Virus record (IMG/VR): IMGVR_UViG_2548877009_000013
Span: 1-7,210 of that record
Reading direction: 5' to 3' (one strand)
Length of the DNA stretch: 7,210 bases
DNA from: a virus
Taxonomy: Duplodnaviria > Heunggongvirae > Uroviricota > Caudoviricetes
Shown here: positions 1 through 7,210 of the stretch, one piece after another
Layout: each line of letters starts with the position of its first letter
How positions within the stretch are numbered: position 1 is the first letter of the stretch
The notes under the pieces: model-generated
Told to the model about the DNA's origin: nothing
Seen by the model: only the letters and a program-made list of their open reading frames with translations
Database searches by the model: none
Program-made: the position numbers and the translations under genes

Positions 1-222
1 ATGCGTGATGATCGTTTTAATTCCCTGAAACAGGAATTTTCCGGCGTTCCTGATGATGCGGCTGATGCGCTTTCGTCAATATCTGAAATTATGCGGGTGG
101 CTTTTTTCTTTCTTTGCACTGATGAGCACAGAGATACAGGGCTAAATATTCTTGATATTGCCGCTAACTATGCTGATTTCGTGACAGAGGTTATTTTAAG
201 AAAAGCGACGGACGGGGATTAA
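1..222 (+). CDS. Hypothetical protein, possibly 5'-truncated by the window edge
   Basis: ORF open from base 1 with stop at 220-222; its stop lies one base before the next start (224) in the same operon; no recognisable motif. Confidence 0.4.
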   Translation: MRDDRFNSLKQEFSGVPDDAADALSSISEIMRVAFFFLCTDEHRDTGLNILDIAANYADFVTEVILRKATDGD

Positions 223-223
223 T

Positions 224-457
224 ATGCGTGATATTTACCACGAAACAACAGATCGCGTATTTCTTGCACTTTCTCACAGTGAAAATATGATGGAAATATT
301 GCGCATATGGCTTGAAACACTTGGCGACAATGAACGCGACAAACAAAAATCAAGAATTGCCACGGCATTAATAACGCTTCTTGAGCCTGTAATAAATGAG
401 TTGCAGGAAATAGAGACATTACACGACCAGTATAAAGCGCCCCACACCGGAGAATAA
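224..457 (+). CDS. Hypothetical small protein (77 aa)
   Basis: ATG at 224 preceded by a G-rich stretch (GGGG ~208-213); tightly packed between flanking same-strand genes; no recognisable motif. Confidence 0.5.
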   Translation: MRDIYHETTDRVFLALSHSENMMEILRIWLETLGDNERDKQKSRIATALITLLEPVINELQEIETLHDQYKAPHTGE

Positions 458-462
458 AAATA

Positions 463-762
463 ATGAAGCTTAAATATTCTGGCTTAACTGCCAGTGGCAA
501 CACTCACCCTAAATTTACGCGCGGTGATATTTACCGCGACCAGTACGGCGGTACGGTAATGATTAAGGGCGTGGCGGGACGGTGCGTAACTTACCGCCGT
601 GAAGGTTACGAATATGATTGCGTGATGCCTGTTTATCAGTTCCGGCGTGATTTTTCTCTGGTACAGACCGCGCCGCATAACGTGCCCACCAGCAACGCCA
701 GAGCACGGGCAAACATCCAGAAGCTGAAAACAATGATTAACGGATTCAGGGGTAAAAAATGA
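463..762 (+). CDS. Hypothetical small protein (99 aa), translationally coupled to the downstream replication gene
   Basis: GGAGAA Shine-Dalgarno about 9 nt upstream of ATG 463; its stop overlaps the start of the next gene (ATGA at 759-762). Confidence 0.55.
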   Translation: MKLKYSGLTASGNTHPKFTRGDIYRDQYGGTVMIKGVAGRCVTYRREGYEYDCVMPVYQFRRDFSLVQTAPHNVPTSNARARANIQKLKTMINGFRGKK

Positions 763-2903
763 AACTGGCACCGAACGTAAAACAGCAGTCACGCGGCATA
801 AAACACAAAGAAACAGAAGTCATTATTTTTGCGGGTAGTGATGCCTGGTCACACGCAAAACAATGGCAGGAACATGACGCGCGTATGGCCGGAGATAATG
901 AGCCTCCTGTGTGGCTTGGGGAGCAGCAGTTATCCGAACTGGATAAGCTGCAAATTGTGCCGGAAGGCAGAAAATCAGTACGCATATTCAGGGCCGGACA
1001 TCTTGAGCCAGTAATGATCAAGGCGATTGGTCAGAAACTGGCGGCGGCAGGCGTACAGGATGCAAATTTTTACCCTGAGGGAATGCACGTTCAGAAGGTG
1101 GAGAACTGGCGCGAATATCTGGCCCGTGAGCGGCAGAATCTTTCTGATGGTCTGGTTATTGAGCTTCCGGTAAAGAAAAAAGATACCGGAAGTCATAGCG
1201 ATGACGAATTAAAGCCACGCGTTGAAAGTCGCGCCGATGGTGTTTTCTGGGTAACGCCCAAAGTGGATAAGCAGTCAGGCGAAATTATCCGGCCTGAGAC
1301 GTGGTTATGTTCTCCGCTTGAACTACTGGGAACGGGGACGATCGGTAAAGAGCATTACCGCGTGATGCGCTGGAAAAAAACCGCAAACCATGAAGTCATC
1401 ACAATGGCGATCCCGTGTGGTGGTATCGGCGACCGTGACGGCTGGCGGTTACTTAAAGATCACGGGCTGAACGTGACAACCAACGGCAAATACAGGGCAA
1501 TCCTGGCGGACTGGATGCAGTTAAGCGGAAGCCATGAGGAATGGCAGTTAAGCACAACAACGGGCTGGCATTTTGGCGCGTACATCATGCCGGACGGTTC
1601 GATCATTGGTGATTCTGAAAAACCGATCCTGTTTACCGGAAAAAGCGCCGCGATTAACGGTTATTCCGTGGCGGGTACGGCGGAGGGCTGGCGCGAGAGT
1701 GTGGCGCGACTGGCTGGCGGTAATGCCTCAATGATGCTGGGTGTGGCAACGTCACTGGCAGCGCCTTTAATTGGCCTTGTGGGTGCTGACGGCTTCGGGG
1801 TGCATCTTTTCGAACAGTCATCGGCAGGTAAGACCACCACGCAGAACATCGCATCAAGTTTATGGGGAGAGCCGGACGCGCAGCGGCTGACCTGGTACGG
1901 CACGGCGTTAGGTATTGCCAATGAGGCCGAGGCCCATAATGACGGGCTTTTACCACTGGATGAGATAGGCCAGGCCGGAAATGCGCGGGAAGTGTCAACG
2001 TCTGCTTATACGCTGTTTAACGGTTCAGGGAAATTACAGGGGGCGAAGGATGGCGGCAACAGGGAGATCAAACACTGGCGAACGGTGGCAATCAGCACCG
2101 GAGAAATGGACGTTGAGACGTTCCTCAAAACGGAGGGGATAAAGGTTAAGGCAGGACAGCTTGTCCGTCTGCTTAACGTGCCGATGGAAAAAGCCACGCA
2201 GTTTCACGAATACAGCACCGGAAAGGCGCACGCAGACGCGTTAAAAGATGCCTGGACAGAAAATCACGGGGCGGCGGGGCGTGAGTGGGTTAAATGGCTG
2301 GCAGACCACCAGCAGGAGACAAAGGACACGGTAAGGGCATGCCGTGAACGGTGGCGCAACCTGATACCGGAGAGCTACGGCGAGCAGGTCCACCGCGTGG
2401 GTGAGCGTTTCGCCATACTGGAGGCCGCACTTGTGCTTTCCGGTCATGTGACTGGCTGGGATGAGCAGGAATGCCGTGATGCCATTCAGCATAATTTTAA
2501 TGCCTGGGTGAAAGAGTTCGGTACGGGCAACAGGGAACACAGGCAGATTATTGAACAGGCTGAGGCGTTTCTTGCAGCCTATGGCCTGAGCAGGTTCGCC
2601 CCTGTCAATTATGACCCTGCCAGCCTGCCGATTTCAGAACTGTACGGCTACAGGGAAAGCGACGGGCGTTATGACGAGCCTGTTTTGTTTTACGTGCTGC
2701 CGGAGCCGTTTAGCTCACATGTGGCGAAGGGATTTAACAAGGATGCCGTAGCAAAGACCCTTCATGAAGCCGGAATGCTGAGAAAACCAGCCAGCGGGCG
2801 GGGATGGCAAATCAGGACACCACGACTAAAACACCTGAAAGGGGCGCGGCTAAGAGTGTATGGCCTTTTGCTGACGCAGGACCACGATGCTGAAAATGAT
2901 TAA
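759..2903 (+). CDS. Replication protein, primase/helicase-like P-loop NTPase (714 aa)
   Basis: Long ORF with a Walker A-like motif (SSAGKTTT) and a Walker B-like hydrophobic stretch ending in DE (LLPLDEIG) about 70 aa downstream; immediately followed by an iteron array, as in satellite primase-ori arrangements such as P4 alpha/ori. Exact family not determinable without a profile search. Confidence 0.7.
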   Translation: MKLAPNVKQQSRGIKHKETEVIIFAGSDAWSHAKQWQEHDARMAGDNEPPVWLGEQQLSELDKLQIVPEGRKSVRIFRAGHLEPVMIKAIGQKLAAAGVQDANFYPEGMHVQKVENWREYLARERQNLSDGLVIELPVKKKDTGSHSDDELKPRVESRADGVFWVTPKVDKQSGEIIRPETWLCSPLELLGTGTIGKEHYRVMRWKKTANHEVITMAIPCGGIGDRDGWRLLKDHGLNVTTNGKYRAILADWMQLSGSHEEWQLSTTTGWHFGAYIMPDGSIIGDSEKPILFTGKSAAINGYSVAGTAEGWRESVARLAGGNASMMLGVATSLAAPLIGLVGADGFGVHLFEQSSAGKTTTQNIASSLWGEPDAQRLTWYGTALGIANEAEAHNDGLLPLDEIGQAGNAREVSTSAYTLFNGSGKLQGAKDGGNREIKHWRTVAISTGEMDVETFLKTEGIKVKAGQLVRLLNVPMEKATQFHEYSTGKAHADALKDAWTENHGAAGREWVKWLADHQQETKDTVRACRERWRNLIPESYGEQVHRVGERFAILEAALVLSGHVTGWDEQECRDAIQHNFNAWVKEFGTGNREHRQIIEQAEAFLAAYGLSRFAPVNYDPASLPISELYGYRESDGRYDEPVLFYVLPEPFSSHVAKGFNKDAVAKTLHEAGMLRKPASGRGWQIRTPRLKHLKGARLRVYGLLLTQDHDAEND

Positions 2904-2928
2904 TCTCGCGTGTAGGAGGTAAAAATAT

Positions 2929-3218
2929 GTTGTCCCAGTCGTCCCAGTAAGCAACAAGCAATCGTAACACATTGAATTACATAAATTTCACTTACAAAAA
3001 GTGGGACAACAGCGGGACAACATTCAGGCATTTTGGGACAACATAGCGGCATTTTGGGACGACACGACACGTATTTTTTACCGTGCTGGAGGGTGGGACA
3101 ACACAAAAACCCTCATGTCGTCCCAAAATCGCCTTATGTCGTCCCACTTTGTGGAGTATGTTTTTAATAAAATCAACAGGTTAACATTAAGTGGGACAAC
3201 CGGGACAACTGGGACGAC
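2929..3218. repeat. Iteron array, putative origin of replication
   Basis: Twelve copies of the 9-bp motif YGGGACRAC. Eight are on the + strand (3002-3010, 3013-3021, 3034-3042, 3055-3063, 3094-3102 and three contiguous copies at 3192-3218) and four are inverted (2929-2937, 2938-2946, 3117-3125, 3138-3146). They are interspersed with AT-rich stretches (3147-3190, 3219-3257) and sit directly downstream of the replication gene. Confidence 0.7.
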
Positions 3219-3257
3219 GTGTTTTGTATATATATACGAAAAATCGAGATCTGAACT

Positions 3258-3506
3258 ATGAAGTTAAACCGCAAACAACCACACTACCGCGCCATTGACC
3301 TTACAGAGCACTGGCTGAGAGTGGCGATAAAAATCATCGACCGCAACACGGTGGAAGGATACGCGAAAGCACATCCCGAACTGATAAGCGCATTCATGAC
3401 CACAGCGGCGGCAAACTTTGCCACGCTGACAGAACGGGAGATTGCCGAAGCGGAACAGGTAACAACCATCAACGTAAAAACCGGAGAGTCAGGCGATGAT
3501 ACATGA
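3258..3506 (+). CDS. Hypothetical small protein (82 aa)
   Basis: ORF starting just after the iteron region; its 3' end overlaps the next ORF by 11 nt (coupled pair); no recognisable motif. Confidence 0.5.
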   Translation: MKLNRKQPHYRAIDLTEHWLRVAIKIIDRNTVEGYAKAHPELISAFMTTAAANFATLTEREIAEAEQVTTINVKTGESGDDT

Positions 3507-3744
3507 CCGCATAGCGGAGGAACTCGAGGCGAAAGGATTTTACCGGAGGGCGGCGGCGCGATGGGGTGAAGTCATGCAGCTGGTGGAGACAGACAAGGAA
3601 CGGCATCAGGTTACGATGCGACGGCTGGAATGTTCCAGGAAGGCACAGAGGCCACCGGAGCCGCCAACGGAGAACTATGCAGACCTGAGAAATGCAGTAA
3701 ATCGCACTTACGCAGACATGGGGCTGAGCAAATTAGCAGAGTAG
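3496..3744 (+). CDS. PerC-like small transcriptional regulator (82 aa), tentative
   Basis: N-terminal segment IAEELEAKGFYRRAAARWGEVM resembles, from memory, the conserved signature of PerC-family activators; GGAGAG Shine-Dalgarno 7 nt upstream of ATG 3496; followed by terminators. Confidence 0.45.
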   Translation: MIHDRIAEELEAKGFYRRAAARWGEVMQLVETDKERHQVTMRRLECSRKAQRPPEPPTENYADLRNAVNRTYADMGLSKLAE

Positions 3745-3766
3745 GAATACCAGAACCACACCACAC

Positions 3767-3790
3767 AGCCGGAGCAATCCGGCTTTTTTG
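3767..3790 (+). terminator. Rho-independent terminator
   Basis: Stem AGCCGGA (3767-3773), loop GCAA, TCCGGCT (3778-3784) followed by a run of six T, about 25 nt after the stop at 3744. Confidence 0.7.
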
Positions 3791-3795
3791 CGCCC

Positions 3796-3837
3796 AAAAA
3801 AAGCCCGATAAGGTCAGAGGTGGCTTATCGGGCTTTT
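3796..3837. terminator. Second hairpin terminator, possibly bidirectional
   Basis: A-tract (3796-3802), stem GCCCGATAAG (3803-3812), 11-nt loop, CTTATCGGGC (3824-3833), then TTTT (3834-3837). Confidence 0.5.
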
Positions 3838-3914
3838 GCATATGAGGCTTTTTGGTGCACTGACACACATGATCGGGATAATCATTTCATAATTTGCAAT
3901 ACAACTCAATATCA

Positions 3915-3942
3915 TTGCACAAAATGCAATCATGATTATAAT
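3915..3942 (+). promoter_or_regulatory. Sigma70-type promoter candidate for the capsid operon
   Basis: -35 TTGCAC (3915-3920), 16-bp spacer, perfect -10 TATAAT (3937-3942); lies about 55 nt upstream of the first gene of the capsid operon. Confidence 0.5.
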
Positions 3943-3945
3943 CAT
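3932..3945. promoter_or_regulatory. Perfect 14-bp palindrome overlapping the -10 hexamer (candidate operator)
   Basis: ATGATTATAATCAT is its own reverse complement and covers the TATAAT. The nearby dyads TGCAAT-N13-ATTGCA (3894-3918) and TTGCA-N5-TGCAA (3915-3929) suggest a regulator-binding region. Confidence 0.4.
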
Positions 3946-3998
3946 AACTGGATGAACATACAGTTATGATTTTTTAAGTCAAAGAGGAATTTCTTACT

Positions 3999-4205
3999 AT
4001 GGCTGAAGAGAAAAAAGGCGGTGTTTCGGTGTACATAAGCCCCGACATCGTGAAGGCGCTCAAGGAACGCCACCAGCAGAACGTAAAAGCAGGCATTGCG
4101 GCAGGACTTGATCCGCTGGCGATGGTTGAGCCGTCAACAGGCTGGCAGGTACGCGCCTATTTACGCGCGGCGCTGGGTATGAATCAGGTTCACGGGGGTG
4201 AATAA
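3999..4205 (+). CDS. Hypothetical small protein (68 aa), first gene of the capsid operon
   Basis: AGAGGA upstream of ATG 3999; stop overlaps the capsid gene start (TAATG at 4203-4207). The N-terminus (VSVYISPDIVKALKERH) has a strand-helix pattern compatible with a ribbon-helix-helix fold, which is speculative. Confidence 0.5.
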   Translation: MAEEKKGGVSVYISPDIVKALKERHQQNVKAGIAAGLDPLAMVEPSTGWQVRAYLRAALGMNQVHGGE

Positions 4206-5260
4206 TGACAGTAAAAGCAATGGCACTTAACACTAACCAGCTTTTTGCGTACCTGAATCGCGGGGATATTGCGGAATTTAAATTCAGTCCGCTGTTTACC
4301 ACGCTGTTTTTCCCGAACGTGGCGACATTCAGCACCCAAAACATCATGCTGGATACCCTGGACATTGAAGAAGTCACCATGTCGGCGTTTTGTTCGCCTA
4401 TGGTTGGCAGCCAGGTACAGCGCGATAAAGGGTACGAAACCAGCACAATTAAACCTGGCTACATGAAGCCAAAGCACGAAATCGATCCAACGAAAACCAT
4501 CATGCGCATGGCTGGAGAAGATCCAGCACAGCTTAACGACCCTACCTACCGCCGTATGCGCCTGATTACTGGCAACATGCGCCGCCAGATAAACGCCATT
4601 AAAGCGCGCGTGGAATGGCTGGCGGTGAATGCGATAACGACCGGAAAAAACATCATTGAGGGCGAAGGCATAGAACGCTATGAAATAGACTGGAAGATCC
4701 CAAGTAAAAATATCGCCAGACAGGGACCGGGTAAAAAGTGGTCAGAGGCAGATAAGGAAACACACGATCCAATCTATGACATCGAGCTTTATGCTGATCA
4801 GGCTGGTTGCCCCGCAAACGTCATGATTATGGGCGTTGAGGTATGGCGCACGTTACGCAGCTTTAAAAAATTCCGTGAGCTGTACGATCTTTCCCGTGGT
4901 TCAGAATCCGCCGCAGAACTGGCCTGTAAAAACCTGGGCGAAGTGGTGAGCTTTAAAGGCTATCTGGGCGATATTGCCCTTATCGTCTATTCCGGCAAAT
5001 ACGCCGACAGCGACGGCACAGAAAAATATTTCCTTGAGCCTGATTTACTGGTCCTGGGCAACACCAACAACAAAGGGCTGGTGGCCTATGGTGCGATTAT
5101 GGATCAGGAAGCGGTAAGAACAGGCGCAACGCAAAACATGTACTACCCGAAAAACTGGATTGAGGACGGCGATCCGGCGATTGAGTACGTGCAGACGCAC
5201 AGCGCACCGCAGCCGGTTCCGGCAGATATTCGCAAATTTGTTACCGTCAAAATTGCTTAA
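4205..5260 (+). CDS. Major capsid protein, phage lambda gpE-like (351 aa)
   Basis: Several blocks match lambda gpE as recalled: EFKFSPLF vs KFKFDPLF, PGYMKPKHE vs PGYVKPKHE, EDPAQLNDPTYRRMR vs EDPQNLADPAYRRRR, LGDIALIVYSGKY vs YGDVAIVVYSGQY, YPKNW and GDPA and SAP near the C-terminus. G-rich RBS upstream of ATG 4205. Confidence 0.9.
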   Translation: MTVKAMALNTNQLFAYLNRGDIAEFKFSPLFTTLFFPNVATFSTQNIMLDTLDIEEVTMSAFCSPMVGSQVQRDKGYETSTIKPGYMKPKHEIDPTKTIMRMAGEDPAQLNDPTYRRMRLITGNMRRQINAIKARVEWLAVNAITTGKNIIEGEGIERYEIDWKIPSKNIARQGPGKKWSEADKETHDPIYDIELYADQAGCPANVMIMGVEVWRTLRSFKKFRELYDLSRGSESAAELACKNLGEVVSFKGYLGDIALIVYSGKYADSDGTEKYFLEPDLLVLGNTNNKGLVAYGAIMDQEAVRTGATQNMYYPKNWIEDGDPAIEYVQTHSAPQPVPADIRKFVTVKIA

Positions 5261-5271
5261 CGGGGGATTCT

Positions 5272-5607
5272 ATGGACACTCCATACATTGAGTTATTTGC
5301 AGGTAGTCAGCAGGTATCCACGACGCTGGTACATTTTGCCGCTGATGCTGGCGTTATTCAGGAATTTACCCCGCTGATGCTGGCGGGCAATGGCGAGTTT
5401 AAGCCGTGGGATGGTCAGGAATCTGGCAAGGCTGTTTATCTGACCTCGTACCCCGTGGACACGTCAAAGCAGAAATCAGCACAGTGTTACAAGACGGGGA
5501 TATTTAATATCGCCGCCGTAAACTGGCCTGAGAGCGCCGACACTGACGCGAAAAAATGCGCCGCCTTTGCGGGTTCTGGCGTATCCGTTCAGCCGCTGGC
5601 GCGATAA
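5272..5607 (+). CDS. Head decoration protein, phage lambda gpD-like (111 aa)
   Basis: Size and motifs match lambda gpD as recalled: TPLML followed by WDG, YKTGIF vs YKSGTF, WPE with acidic residues, AAFAGSGVS vs TAFAGTAIS. GGGGGA RBS upstream; adjacent to the capsid gene. Confidence 0.85.
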   Translation: MDTPYIELFAGSQQVSTTLVHFAADAGVIQEFTPLMLAGNGEFKPWDGQESGKAVYLTSYPVDTSKQKSAQCYKTGIFNIAAVNWPESADTDAKKCAAFAGSGVSVQPLAR

Positions 5608-5619
5608 GCAGGGGAAACG

Positions 5620-6033
5620 ATGGCAACGAATGAAAGCATCATGGCGCTACCGCTGGCGAGTAAATTTAAAGCAGAAGCGCGGGCAATGGCTGACAGAGGT
5701 TTATCAACCTACGAGGCCGTATATCAACTCAACAAACTGGAAGAGCAGGACAAGCCGCGCGCTGATGCGATTATGGCGCTTCATGAACATAACGACTATC
5801 AGCCGCTGTTACGTGCAATGGCAAACGTGCCATGTATTAGCGTCGATAATGCTCGTGAAATCCTGAACATGACCATAGACCAGGAGCGCCCAAAGGTTGC
5901 ACCAGAGCTTACCGCAGCCTTTGAAAACTTTATGGACATGCACAGCCCGCAAGCCGTATCAGCTGGCATGGCATACGATGGCAGAAACCAGGGCGATGAC
6001 GGCGACATCGATCGCATACTGAAAACCATCTGA
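5620..6033 (+). CDS. Hypothetical protein (137 aa), last gene of the capsid operon
   Basis: AGGGGAAA RBS before ATG 5620; same strand and operon as the capsid and decoration genes; followed by a terminator. Function unknown; a head or packaging accessory role is suggested by position only. Confidence 0.6.
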   Translation: MATNESIMALPLASKFKAEARAMADRGLSTYEAVYQLNKLEEQDKPRADAIMALHEHNDYQPLLRAMANVPCISVDNAREILNMTIDQERPKVAPELTAAFENFMDMHSPQAVSAGMAYDGRNQGDDGDIDRILKTI

Positions 6034-6039
6034 GACAAG

Positions 6040-6061
6040 GCCGGAGAAATCCGGCTTTTTT
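6040..6061 (+). terminator. Rho-independent terminator
   Basis: GCCGGA (6040-6045), loop GAAA, TCCGGC (6050-6055), then TTTTTT (6056-6061), 7 nt after the stop at 6033. Nearly identical to the terminator at 3767-3790. Confidence 0.7.
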
Positions 6062-6062
6062 A

Positions 6063-6127
6063 CGGGTCCTTCCTGGAATTATGGCCCGTTACGGGGCGGC
6101 GACCTCGCGCGTTTTCGCTATTTATGA
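6063..6127 (+). other. Lambda-type cohesive end site (cos), left copy in + orientation
   Basis: Contains GTTACG then GGGCGGCGACCT (6094-6105) then CGCGCGTTTTCGCTATTTATGA. This matches the 12-nt cohesive end and flanks of the lambda cosN region as recalled (lambda: GTTACG, GGGCGGCGACCT, CGCGGGTTTTCGCTATTTATGA). It sits directly upstream of a Nu1-like gene, as in lambda. Confidence 0.75.
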
Positions 6128-6194
6128 CGTTTTTCCGTGAAGGTGACACCACCACCACTTGATTAACATTTAACCAGTCAATTGAGGTAATATT

Positions 6195-6635
6195 ATGATT
6201 GATAAGGATTGTTTTGTAAGTCAGCAGGAAATAGCTCAACATTTCAAGGTAAACAGAACCACTATTCGCGCATGGACCAAACAGGGGATGCCCTATCTTA
6301 ATGCGGATCGCGGAAAGTCTGGAGGTTATCACATCGGGCATACATTGCTTTGGTCTTCAGGTAAAAGCCATCTTGAGACCATCGGATATCACGTAGAAAC
6401 CAGTGCGCTGGAAAAAATTATGGTTGCCAGGCTGCTTTTATCTGAGCGTGACGAGTACTCCAGTGAAGAAACAGAACATCGCTTTGATGAAGGTTTGCAG
6501 ATTTACGGCTATTCACCGGAAGATGTGAGCAAGGCACGAAATAAAATGGCTGGCTTTCTGGCTGGGTGGCGTCATGCCGTAAGCGTTCGCCGTACCAGCA
6601 TGGAGCAATCAGTCGTTACAGAACAGCAAAGTTAA
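6195..6635 (+). CDS. Terminase small subunit-like protein with a Nu1-type winged-HTH N-terminus (146 aa)
   Basis: N-terminus VSQQEIAQHFKVNRTTIRAWTKQGMPYL parallels lambda Nu1 VNKKQLADIFGASIRTIQNWQEQGMPVL as recalled; GAGG RBS 8 nt upstream of ATG 6195; located immediately after cos. The C-terminal two thirds show no recognisable similarity to Nu1. Confidence 0.75.
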   Translation: MIDKDCFVSQQEIAQHFKVNRTTIRAWTKQGMPYLNADRGKSGGYHIGHTLLWSSGKSHLETIGYHVETSALEKIMVARLLLSERDEYSSEETEHRFDEGLQIYGYSPEDVSKARNKMAGFLAGWRHAVSVRRTSMEQSVVTEQQS

Positions 6636-6665
6636 AAATCACTTTCTGTTACGCCATCAAATACG

Positions 6666-6815
6666 CAATACAACAACCACGTATTTTTTTAAAACTATTT
6701 GATTCAATTAGCATTTTTTTATTTTCAGCATCAAAAAAACACTATCAGGTTGTTGTATTGCTCTCTATTTTTACTTAGTTATCAAATAGATATGACAAAC
6801 AATTAAACAACAACC
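6666..6815. repeat. AT-rich segment with three copies of ACAACAACC (two direct, one inverted), candidate cosB-like binding sites
   Basis: ACAACAACC at 6670-6678 and 6807-6815; inverted GGTTGTTGT at 6748-6756. The outer and middle copies form a 13-bp perfect inverted repeat (CAATACAACAACC at 6666-6678 vs GGTTGTTGTATTG at 6748-6760). No ORF of note in this segment. Confidence 0.4.
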
Positions 6816-6830
6816 TACCTCTAAAAAAGC

Positions 6831-6895
6831 TCATAAATAGCGAAAAACCGCGAGGTCGCCGCCCCGTAACGGGCCATAATTCCAGGAAGGACCCG
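6831..6895 (-). other. Second lambda-type cos site, inverted copy
   Basis: Reverse complement of 6831-6895 equals 6063-6127 except for 2 mismatches (63 of 65 identical); contains the complement of GGGCGGCGACCT at 6853-6864. Confidence 0.7.
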
Positions 6896-6928
6896 ACGAC
6901 ACCAGACTATCAGAACGATGGGGGCACA

Positions 6929-7210
6929 ATGACAGAAGCCGAACTACTGCGATTAATCCGTCGCGTTGCCGGAATCAGCCAGCAGGCTGACGAACAGGCC
7001 ACGCAGCCGGACAGCGTGACCGCCGAAAATTATGCGCGTGTGGTTGCTGAGGTGATGCGCCGTGACGGTATTGAGCTTAACGGCGTGGATATGCGCGACA
7101 TACGGATCCGCGTTCTGGAAATGCTGGCCTACAATCGCCGCGTTGAACTGTATCGGGAGAAAGAAAAAATTACGTACCACTGGAAGAAGCCGGAGCGGTT
7201 ACGGCGATAA
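6929..7210 (+). CDS. Hypothetical protein (93 aa)
   Basis: ATG 6929 preceded by GGGGG; the stop codon falls exactly at the window end; no recognisable motif. Confidence 0.45.
   Translation: MTEAELLRLIRRVAGISQQADEQATQPDSVTAENYARVVAEVMRRDGIELNGVDMRDIRIRVLEMLAYNRRVELYREKEKITYHWKKPERLRR

Follow-up and report, generated by a model that had tools for sequence, protein, structure and literature searches.

Two facing cos sites around rpp in an EcCICFT073-family island: a second site with a putative phage-type cosB and comparative evidence for flipping and exchange of the DNA between the sites

Why should a phage satellite carry two cohesive-end packaging sites (cos) that point toward each other? This question is raised by a 7,210-nt stretch of DNA (positions 1 to 7,210 of IMG/VR record IMGVR_UViG_2548877009_000013; hereafter the window), which, judged from its gene content, is the packaging end of a cos-type phage-inducible chromosomal island (PICI) of the EcCICFT073 family in Escherichia coli. 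A sequence-only reading of the window had presented the pairing as unexplained, which does not hold, as EcCICFT073 was published in 2018–2019 with two functional cos sites, cos1 and cos2; the reason for having two was, however, left as an explicit open question by the authors (Fillol-Salom 2018, 2019). The best explanation, to which we assign a probability of about 0.7, is that cos1 is used through the island-encoded redirecting phage packaging (Rpp) protein, that cos2 mimics the cosB of other helper phages, and that the combination widens the range of helpers.

The two sites lie in the arms of an inverted repeat found by a repeat search of the window (pair I1; arms 6063–6134 and 6824–6895, 72 nt, 94% complementary, with 689 nt between them). 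Positions 6063–6127 and the reverse complement of 6831–6895 differ by two mismatches, a recount that agrees with the 63 of 65 identical positions noted earlier. The left arm (6063–6134, plus strand) comprises cosQ, cosN, and the first cosB bases of cos1, and it matches EcCICFT073 cos1 as printed in Fig. S1A of PMC6739421, while the right arm (6824–6895, minus strand) comprises the same elements of cos2, its outer side being that of the published EcCICFT073 cos2. The 12-nt cohesive-end sequence GGGCGGCGACCT is present in two exact copies, i.e., cosN of cos1 (6094–6105, plus strand) and cosN of cos2 (6853–6864, minus strand), and no others were found in the window even with one mismatch allowed (0.04 matches per shuffle expected). 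Both copies are preceded by GTTACG and followed by CGCG..TTTTCGCTATTTATGA, as in the cos regions of lambda and phi80 (supplements of PMC6739421 and PMC6092414). The cosQ-like TTTACGGGTCCTT begins 35 nt before cosN in the left copy, which by direct count is the lambda spacing, and CGGGTCCTT is read at the same 35-nt distance in the right copy. Moreover, window positions 6040–6160 gave blastn matches at the cos of 79 lambdoid phage records; in phage DE3, the matched part includes a feature labelled 'cos site'. The identification of two lambda-type cos sites is therefore well founded, and so is their convergent orientation, as the order cosQ, cosN, cosB points inward at both of them.

The paired arrangement is conserved among relatives. 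A single co-linear match covering 80% or more of window positions 6000–7000 was obtained for at least 56 complete E. coli chromosomes; in the CFT073 chromosome, cosN(+) at L094:2672 and cosN(-) at L094:3411 converge around rppA; and a convergent cosN pair is present in all 19 of the 19 Rpp-encoding IMG/VR loci that have a lambda-type cosN and both flanks. The cross-locus survey of Rpp rests on IMG/VR, and a search of GTDB species genomes with Rpp gave no confirmed locus. Apart from the a priori oddity of two cos sites, nothing speaks for the view that faulty assembly or artefactual duplication created the second copy in this contig, and its occurrence in dozens of independently finished chromosomes, in IMG/VR contigs, and in the experimentally studied CFT073 makes this view so improbable that we rejected it.

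The left site, which reads rightward, is by its sequence the published cos1, because its cosB runs on into the start of rpp (CGTTTTTCCGTGAAGGTGACACCACCACC...ATGATTGATAA; Figure S1A of PMC6739421). This cosB (approximately 6106–6275, plus strand) overlaps the 5′ end of rpp and is homologous to the stretch moved into a phi80 chimera with the primers phi80quimera-cosB-3m/4c, i.e., from TTTCCGTGAAGGTGACACC to CAGAACCACTATTCGCGCATGG (PMC6739421 supplement). In lambdoid phages, cosB follows the rule R3-I1-R2-R1, with R2 opposite to R3 and R1 (PMC9026076). No repeated R elements were found in the cosB of cos1, which agrees with the proposal of Murialdo and Feiss (2022) that this site has a single R3-like element and no repeated R sequences.

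The rpp gene (6195–6635, plus strand; 146 amino acids (aa); identified as an open reading frame and by homology) lies immediately 3′ of cos1, its ATG being at 6195 and the end of cosN at 6105, like terS after a phage cos. It had been described as a Nu1-like gene, and the N-terminus of its product does match PHROG 57 'terminase small subunit' (E 6e-8). Nevertheless, its assignment as a small terminase was rejected, since the protein matches the RppC structure PDB 6HLK over residues 1–125 (E 7e-32) and is identical to the printed RppA at 48 of the first 50 residues. The proposed DNA-reading residues of Rpp, R21, T22, R25, and K29 (PMC6739421), are all present in the translation (...KVN-R21-T22-T-I-R25-A-W-T-K29...). 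By homology, the gene between the cos sites is thus one for an RppA-type protein. Binding of TerS, blocking of helper packaging, and promotion of cos1 have been shown only for RppA/B/C of the published islands (PMC6739421), and the Rpp-dependence of the window cosB1, shown for CFT073, would be expected here by the same homology.

For EcCICFT073, functional data exist for both sites. Each of cos1 and cos2 makes a cloned plasmid transferable by lambda and phi80; within the island, cos1 is needed for transfer, which falls when this site is deleted, deletion of cos2 raises lambda-mediated transfer, the double deletion abolishes transfer, and cos2 is dispensable when lambda or phi80 serves as the helper (PMC6092414). 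RppA, whose gene lies beside cos1, forms a pair with the small terminase of the helper, and packaging is thereby redirected to the cosB of cos1 and not to that of cos2 (PMC6739421). The cos pair itself is already published for this satellite family, and the window is a new member with a different cos2 allele.

It is the inner side of this allele that offers a possible answer. The outer flank of the window cos2, TCGTCGGGTCCTTCCTGGAATTATGGCCCGTTACG (reverse complement of the right copy), is identical to that of the CFT073 cos2. On the inner side, a motif scan found three matches to GGTTGTTGT (0.09 expected by chance), located at 6807–6815 (minus strand; R3-like, bp 50–58 from the first cosN base), 6748–6756 (plus strand; R2-like, bp 109–117), and 6670–6678 (minus strand; R1-like, bp 187–195). 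Read from cosN, they run forward, reverse, and forward, as in the lambdoid three-R rule, and the first of them falls inside the interval of bp 48–65 given to R3 by Murialdo and Feiss. We refer to this region (6666–6852, minus strand), delimited by the motif scan and by alignment with phage cosB regions, as a G-type cosB and consider its GGTTGTTGT elements as putative R-like TerS binding sites.

The spacer of the window cos2 gave no match among 50,697 deposited phages by blastn at a distant setting, and taken alone this result would suggest no phage origin; homologues of 77–80% identity were revealed by a pattern search of IMG/VR combined with typing of the downstream genes. The pattern cosN-N(25-55)-GGTTGTTGT was found in 88 IMG/VR contigs, comprising 66 lambdoid prophages, 17 PICIs, and five contigs too short to class. 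The 66 are considered lambdoid prophages with a G-type cosB of their own, because a Nu1-type small terminase is encoded at about +300 and gpA at about +700. Over 200 nt, the window cosB2 is 77–80% identical to most G-type phage cosB regions, and the identity is unevenly distributed, reaching 97% in the three repeat elements versus 64–68% in the DNA between them. PICI and phage cosB diverge from a few bases past the third element onward, at a point some 25 nt short of the start codon of the phage terS. On its inner side, cos2 therefore has the appearance of a complete lambdoid cosB copied from a different group of lambdoid phages.

The same can be proposed for the other allele of cos2. The CFT073-type (C-type) cosB2, with repeats of the CATGTCCGG type, shares 99.1% identity with PhiR12 phages over 110 bp; in these phages it sits between Rz and Nu1. 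Amongst the 19 complete IMG/VR Rpp loci the outer site is G-type in 8 and C-type in 11, so that two phage-type cosB alleles appear to have been recruited to the same cos2 position. The small terminases of G-type and PhiR12 phages both belong to Pfam Phage_Nu1. All G-type phages, across three C-terminal lineages, have one TerS N-terminal domain in common (AFLLNKSDMASSIGISVQAFDKWGVPP...), and the PhiR12 TerS has a different N-terminal domain together with a C-terminal half identical to that of the G-type phage L008. It seems that the cosB type co-varies with the DNA-binding N-terminal domain of TerS, as expected for cognate specificity pairs. Such co-variation is known for lambda versus phage 21. 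Among 5,426 complete genomes, the G-type cosB/TerS combination was found in 244 and the C-type in 1,155.

These observations bear on a suggestion of the sequence-only reading, that the two sites serve terminases of different specificity. Dual helper specificity is, on comparative grounds, well supported, with an Rpp-dependent cos1 in the published island and a cos2 whose cosB appears to be copied from other lambdoids with a different TerS DNA-binding domain. At cos1, the RppA-type protein would pair with the helper small terminase and steer the terminase to this site, as published for CFT073 and presumed here by homology. At cos2, the unmodified terminase of a helper group with matching cosB could package the island directly and without Rpp. 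The island would thus have one 'redirected' and one 'mimicked' packaging specificity and, in consequence, a broader helper range. As the sites face each other, neither would be rightly oriented to end packaging begun at the other, and a terminase moving from one site would meet the other in an orientation unsuited to cosQ-dependent termination. Furthermore, if packaging had started at cos1, a cut at cos2 would break the DNA after 0.75 kb, which would explain why deletion of cos2 raises transfer by lambda.

The last effect may also be read differently, namely that cos2 is a decoy, a terminase trap, or a decaying relic, bound or cut without productive packaging and at most interfering with the helper. 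The gain in lambda-mediated transfer of EcCICFT073 upon deletion of cos2, its dispensability with lambda or phi80, its lack of stimulation by RppA, and, in the window allele, the 77–80% identity to phage cosB and the cosN-R3 spacing that is one nucleotide short all fit this reading. We nevertheless consider it improbable and, on balance, unsupported, as the cloned CFT073 cos2 alone gives plasmid transfer, the R-like elements stand out by selective conservation (97% amid 64–68% surroundings), this position has acquired two different cosB alleles of phage type, and islands that lack both rpp and cosB1 (described below) rely on two phage-type cos sites alone; interference with the helper is, moreover, already accounted for by Rpp.

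It should be stressed that several points weigh against the proposal that cos2 mimics the cosB of other helpers. The spacing between cosN and R3, reported as critical in lambda (Murialdo and Feiss), is one nucleotide shorter in the window allele than in phages (a 58-nt pattern match versus 59–60-nt matches), and, with just 77–80% identity to phage cosB, the G-type cos2 could be decaying. Cutting of this site by terminase is a prediction from its sequence, and the cognate helper of the CFT073 cos2 is likewise predicted, as the cosB of phi4, the native helper of CFT073, is of a third type. The CFT073 cos2 is not only dispensable but even costly when the helper is lambda or phi80 (PMC6092414). 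Finally, among the matches listed, a single IMG genome id (2585427729) is common to the prophage-motif and island lists. This isolate genome contributes one prophage of the G-type, two islands that differ in cos2 (G-type in one, C-type in the other), and another Rpp contig (L017, L081/L102, L105, and L118, respectively), which means that several cos-PICIs and a matching potential helper occur in one cell.

A sub-family of its own is formed by the islands without rpp (L002:5941–6538; L007, L010, L012, L021, L028, L054, L070, and L091), in which about 90 bp of the rpp 3′ end is left and cosB1 is lost. Their sole packaging signals are a G-type cos and a C-type cos that face each other, and by this content they would be Rpp-less, cosmid-like satellites.

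The same islands address another suggestion made from the repeats, that the segment between them can invert. The 512 bp between their cosN sites are 98–99.6% identical to the reverse complement of the corresponding segment in sister islands, and the flanks keep their orientation and are mostly 98–100% identical. The breakpoints fall within the 25-bp CCCGTTACG-GGGCGGCGACCT-CGCG, which is the sole perfect homology between those arms. The two orientations occur in about equal numbers. On the 1.9-kb upstream flank, L007 (G-type cos on the left) and L028 (G-type cos on the right) are 2 nt apart and L010 (left) and L012 (right) are 11 nt apart, whereas L007 and L010, which share the orientation, are 38 nt apart; orientation is therefore polyphyletic on this flank, indicating at least two or three independent inversions.

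A second case came from a query made as a synthetic inverted version of the window segment, which was matched at 83% coverage by 15 complete genomes. These have the CFT073-type module upside down, with the RppA accession of CFT073 on the opposite strand, the same neighbours, and a position beside phoQ, and the 727 bp between the cosN sites show no mismatch to the reverse complement of the CFT073 segment. Counted over complete genomes, 38 CFT073-type modules are canonical and 15 inverted; over 1 kb the 15 inverted copies do not differ, and they may stem from a single event. Comparison between strains thus supports inversion in two sister modules, and more than once. The window's own allele (cosB1-rpp-G-type) was found in the canonical form only, no inverted form being present in complete genomes or IMG/VR Rpp loci, so the suggestion holds for sister modules and was not seen for the allele that had prompted it.

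Both orientations in nature (38 versus 15 for the CFT073-type and about equal for the Rpp-less modules), the recurrence of inversion on the flank phylogeny, and the retention of the inverted repeat even in diverged islands might suggest a programmed invertible switch, frequent and adaptive, which would control, for example, the expression of rpp or which chromosomal flank is packaged. We regard such a switch as less probable still than the decoy. A dedicated invertase was rejected as a candidate: no invertase or recombinase was found in or beside the segment, where the family-supported open reading frames (positions 5620–7210) are orf137, rpp, and orf93. The island integrase is located about 8 kb from the cos-bounded segment, and a role of this enzyme in inversion is possible. 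Moreover, the 15 inverted CFT073-type copies perhaps go back to one event, the window allele is known in one orientation only, and two intact cos sites are present in either orientation, so that no change of phenotype is obvious.

Not only the orientation but also the location of the segment appears to change. We delimited a cassette, cosB1-rpp-cosB2, between the cosN sites (6106–6852, no strand assigned), whose homologues are inverted and exchanged among island backbones. In a comparison of 30 loci, modules with 0–2 differences in 512–747 bp sit in differing backbones, the adjacent 400 and 300 nt of which differ at up to 38 and 38 positions, respectively (about 10%), and mismatches in the flank often begin 9 nt from cosN. 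Purifying selection as the cause of this difference between module and backbone was excluded, because the flanks are coding as well. The segment therefore behaves as a cassette with its limits at cosN that has moved from one island backbone to another, the junctions lying at the cos arms. Concerted evolution is seen in the arms themselves. The window and WP4, unlike CFT073, have the right-type cosQ at both sides, which points to gene conversion outside cosN and hence to homologous recombination acting on the arms.

Two side observations concern the arms. Locus L003 (E. coli Ch1; arms 5949–6012 and 6703–6766), with an Rpp variant of 137 aa, has the same single-base cosN variant GGGCGTCGACCT in both arms, which indicates a concerted change of both cohesive ends or a match to a helper with that cosN. 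In distant Rpp islands (L114:2357–3192, L115:2371–3179, and L116:2364–3185; Rpp 82–85% identical), inverted arms of 77–80 nt around rpp are kept, the cohesive-end region is quite unlike that of lambda and differs between the two arms, and in L115 GGTTGTTGT-type repeats persist on the inner side of the right arm.

How might the segment flip? An exchange between facing arms would invert the rpp cassette rather than delete it, and homologous recombination within the arms, by RecA or by Red/RecT of a helper, is the default explanation, supported by the gene conversion outside cosN. A second mechanism, possible although unlikely, is that the cassette is bounded by terminase and that inversion and exchange result from terminase cutting, with no recombinase involved. 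A cut at both sites would leave an inner fragment with a 5′-GGGCGGCGACCT overhang at each end and the complementary overhang on the outer ends, and this fragment could re-anneal and be ligated either way, or into another element cut at a lambda-type cos. By this route, satellites could flip and trade rpp and cosB modules and capture cosB from helper phages. Breakpoints within 25 bp containing cosN and a change of identity within 9 nt of cosN are consistent with terminase cutting. RecA-mediated or phage Red/RecT-type recombination gives the same pattern and is a priori more likely, for which reason it is ranked above cutting; the position of the crossover cannot separate homologous recombination from terminase cut-and-rejoin, as the diverged arms share only 25 bp of perfect homology and this contains cosN.

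The remaining content of the island agrees with its assignment. Open reading frames and family searches revealed in the window a DUF927 primase, a PerC regulator, homologues of lambda capsid proteins E and D, and proteins of 137 aa, 146 aa (helix-turn-helix), and 93 aa. The full island, in locus L001, extends from the integrase to the 93-aa gene (orf93), is flanked by roxA and phoQ, and has the gene order int, alpA-like regulator, replication genes, PerC, capsid E/D homologues, and cos-rpp-cos; the right end of the CFT073 island likewise adjoins phoQ. An integrase, an alpA-type regulator, a replication module, and chromosomal integration, together with the absence of terminase and tail genes, correspond to the organisation of EcCICFT073, the model Gram-negative cos-type PICI, for which alone helper-induced excision, replication, and high-frequency transfer have been published.

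The cassette lies between two backbone genes whose orientation is constant when it flips. On the left is the gene of the 137-aa protein (5620–6033, plus strand; PHROG 1999, function unknown), which weakly resembles a head maturation protease PHROG in the C-terminal part of the latter (E 4e-10) and is a head-tail connector in some PGAP annotations, which vary; on the right is the gene of the 93-aa protein (6929–7210, plus strand; PHROG 1561, function unknown). Between the left gene and cos1, direct reading revealed a hairpin, GCCGGA-GAAA-TCCGGC, followed by a T-run that enters the cosQ of cos1 (6040–6062, plus strand), at the end of the capsid-gene block. It may act as a terminator, although it was not flagged by a consensus terminator scan, and the consensus promoter/terminator scan of positions 5950–7000 gave background level only. 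A 30-nt hairpin with a T-run (pair D5) is present at 3763–3792 and 6035–6064, the copies being 87% alike; the first closes the PerC block, and the second, which overlaps the cosQ start of cos1, closes the capsid block.

Homologues of the lambda major capsid protein E (Pfam E 1e-49) and decoration protein D (E 3e-17) are encoded at window positions 4205–5607 (L094:782–2184 in CFT073), while EcCICFT073 was stated to be without capsid morphogenesis genes (PMC6092414); a frameshift has made the capsid gene of strain EPSSH018 a pseudogene. Related genes are found near G-type cos sites. In L065 (IMGVR_UViG_2617270987_000004), a G-type cos with cosN at 2431 is followed by a truncated Nu1 and, at only +1.4 kb, by a homologue of capsid protein E that shares 46% identity with the one in the window; the large terminase and the portal are apparently missing, and the locus may be a deleted prophage or another type of satellite. 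In L051 (IMGVR_UViG_3300028982_000003), a G-type prophage contig, the stretch from +10.8 to +13.6 kb from cos contains a capsid E homologue of 54% identity and a homologue of the 93-aa island protein of 78% identity, which hints at shared ancestry or an adjacent satellite. Finally, just 3′ of the primase gene (2994–3153), repeats that contain GGGACAAC, both direct and inverted, are clustered (families D14 and D16; pairs I2, I3, and I9) in what looks like an iteron-type replication origin of the island.

As regards what was already known, PICI cosB regions were called 'completely divergent' from phage cosB (PMC6092414 and PMC6739421), and the available portions of these two EcCICFT073 papers neither contain the word 'inverted' nor report a phage source for cos2. 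Murialdo and Feiss (2022) dealt with cos1 only, with cos2 unmentioned, and a 2026 paper on lateral transduction and a 2025 paper on Chi hotspots contain nothing relevant to the function, orientation, or inversion of cos2; on these subjects, no report was found in the literature searched, the coverage of which was limited. A second site that copies the cos signal of another helper group, and the repeated flipping and moving of the DNA between the sites, thus appear to be unreported.

The published question of why there is a second cos now has a testable answer, as its alleles, at least two in number, each match the cosB of an identifiable and common group of E. coli lambdoid prophages; the PhiR12 phages were deposited with the laboratory hosts K-12 MG1655 and E. 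coli C. Should packaging by those phages at cos2 prove independent of Rpp, cos-type PICIs would combine the redirecting and the mimicking strategies of hijacking, and the assays with lambda and phi80 would underestimate their helper range and hence how widely their genes can spread. Flipping and backbone-swapping would make packaging specificity a mobile module in these satellites, and the cos-bounded cassette could serve as a natural test case for terminase cleavage driving DNA rearrangement.

Several known systems may be compared with this arrangement. The G segment of Mu, the C segment of P1, the Salmonella hin segment, and the fim switch are invertible segments bounded by inverted repeats. 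Like them, the cos segment is short, bounded by an inverted repeat, and found in both orientations among near-identical elements; unlike them, it has no dedicated invertase nearby, its repeats are sites cleaved by terminase, and flipping brings about no evident switch of coding sequence or promoter. The closest counterpart is the cos1-rppA-cos2 module of EcCICFT073 (ISME J 2018; Mol Cell 2019), which shares with the window the island family, the gene order, the convergent geometry, a cos1 with cosB overlapping the 5′ end of rpp, an RppA-type protein, and the outer half of cos2, and differs in the inner half of cos2, which has CATGTCCGG-type repeats there and GGTTGTTGT repeats in the window.

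The cos of lambdoid phages resembles cos2 in its identical cosN, its lambda-spaced cosQ, and its three repeats at about bp 50, 109, and 187, the middle one reversed; by our own count on the printed lambda sequence, R3 of lambda lies at about bp 49–64 and R2 at about bp 109–124. The repeat sequence of cos2 differs, however, from the lambda R sites, its third repeat is about 35 nt farther out than in lambda, and a phage cos is followed by the TerS and TerL genes, whereas cos2 abuts the 3′ end of rpp. Among satellites, P4, which carries the cos of P2, is another cosmid-like one. SaPIbov5 and SaPIbov4 (PMC6092414) are also cosmid-like and, similarly to the window island, carry the packaging signal of the helper itself to use its terminase, SaPIbov4 being said to have two putative cos sites (PMC6092414). 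What sets the window apart from these cosmid-like satellites is that a putatively mimicked cos and an Rpp-redirected cos are combined on one element, facing each other within 0.76 kb.

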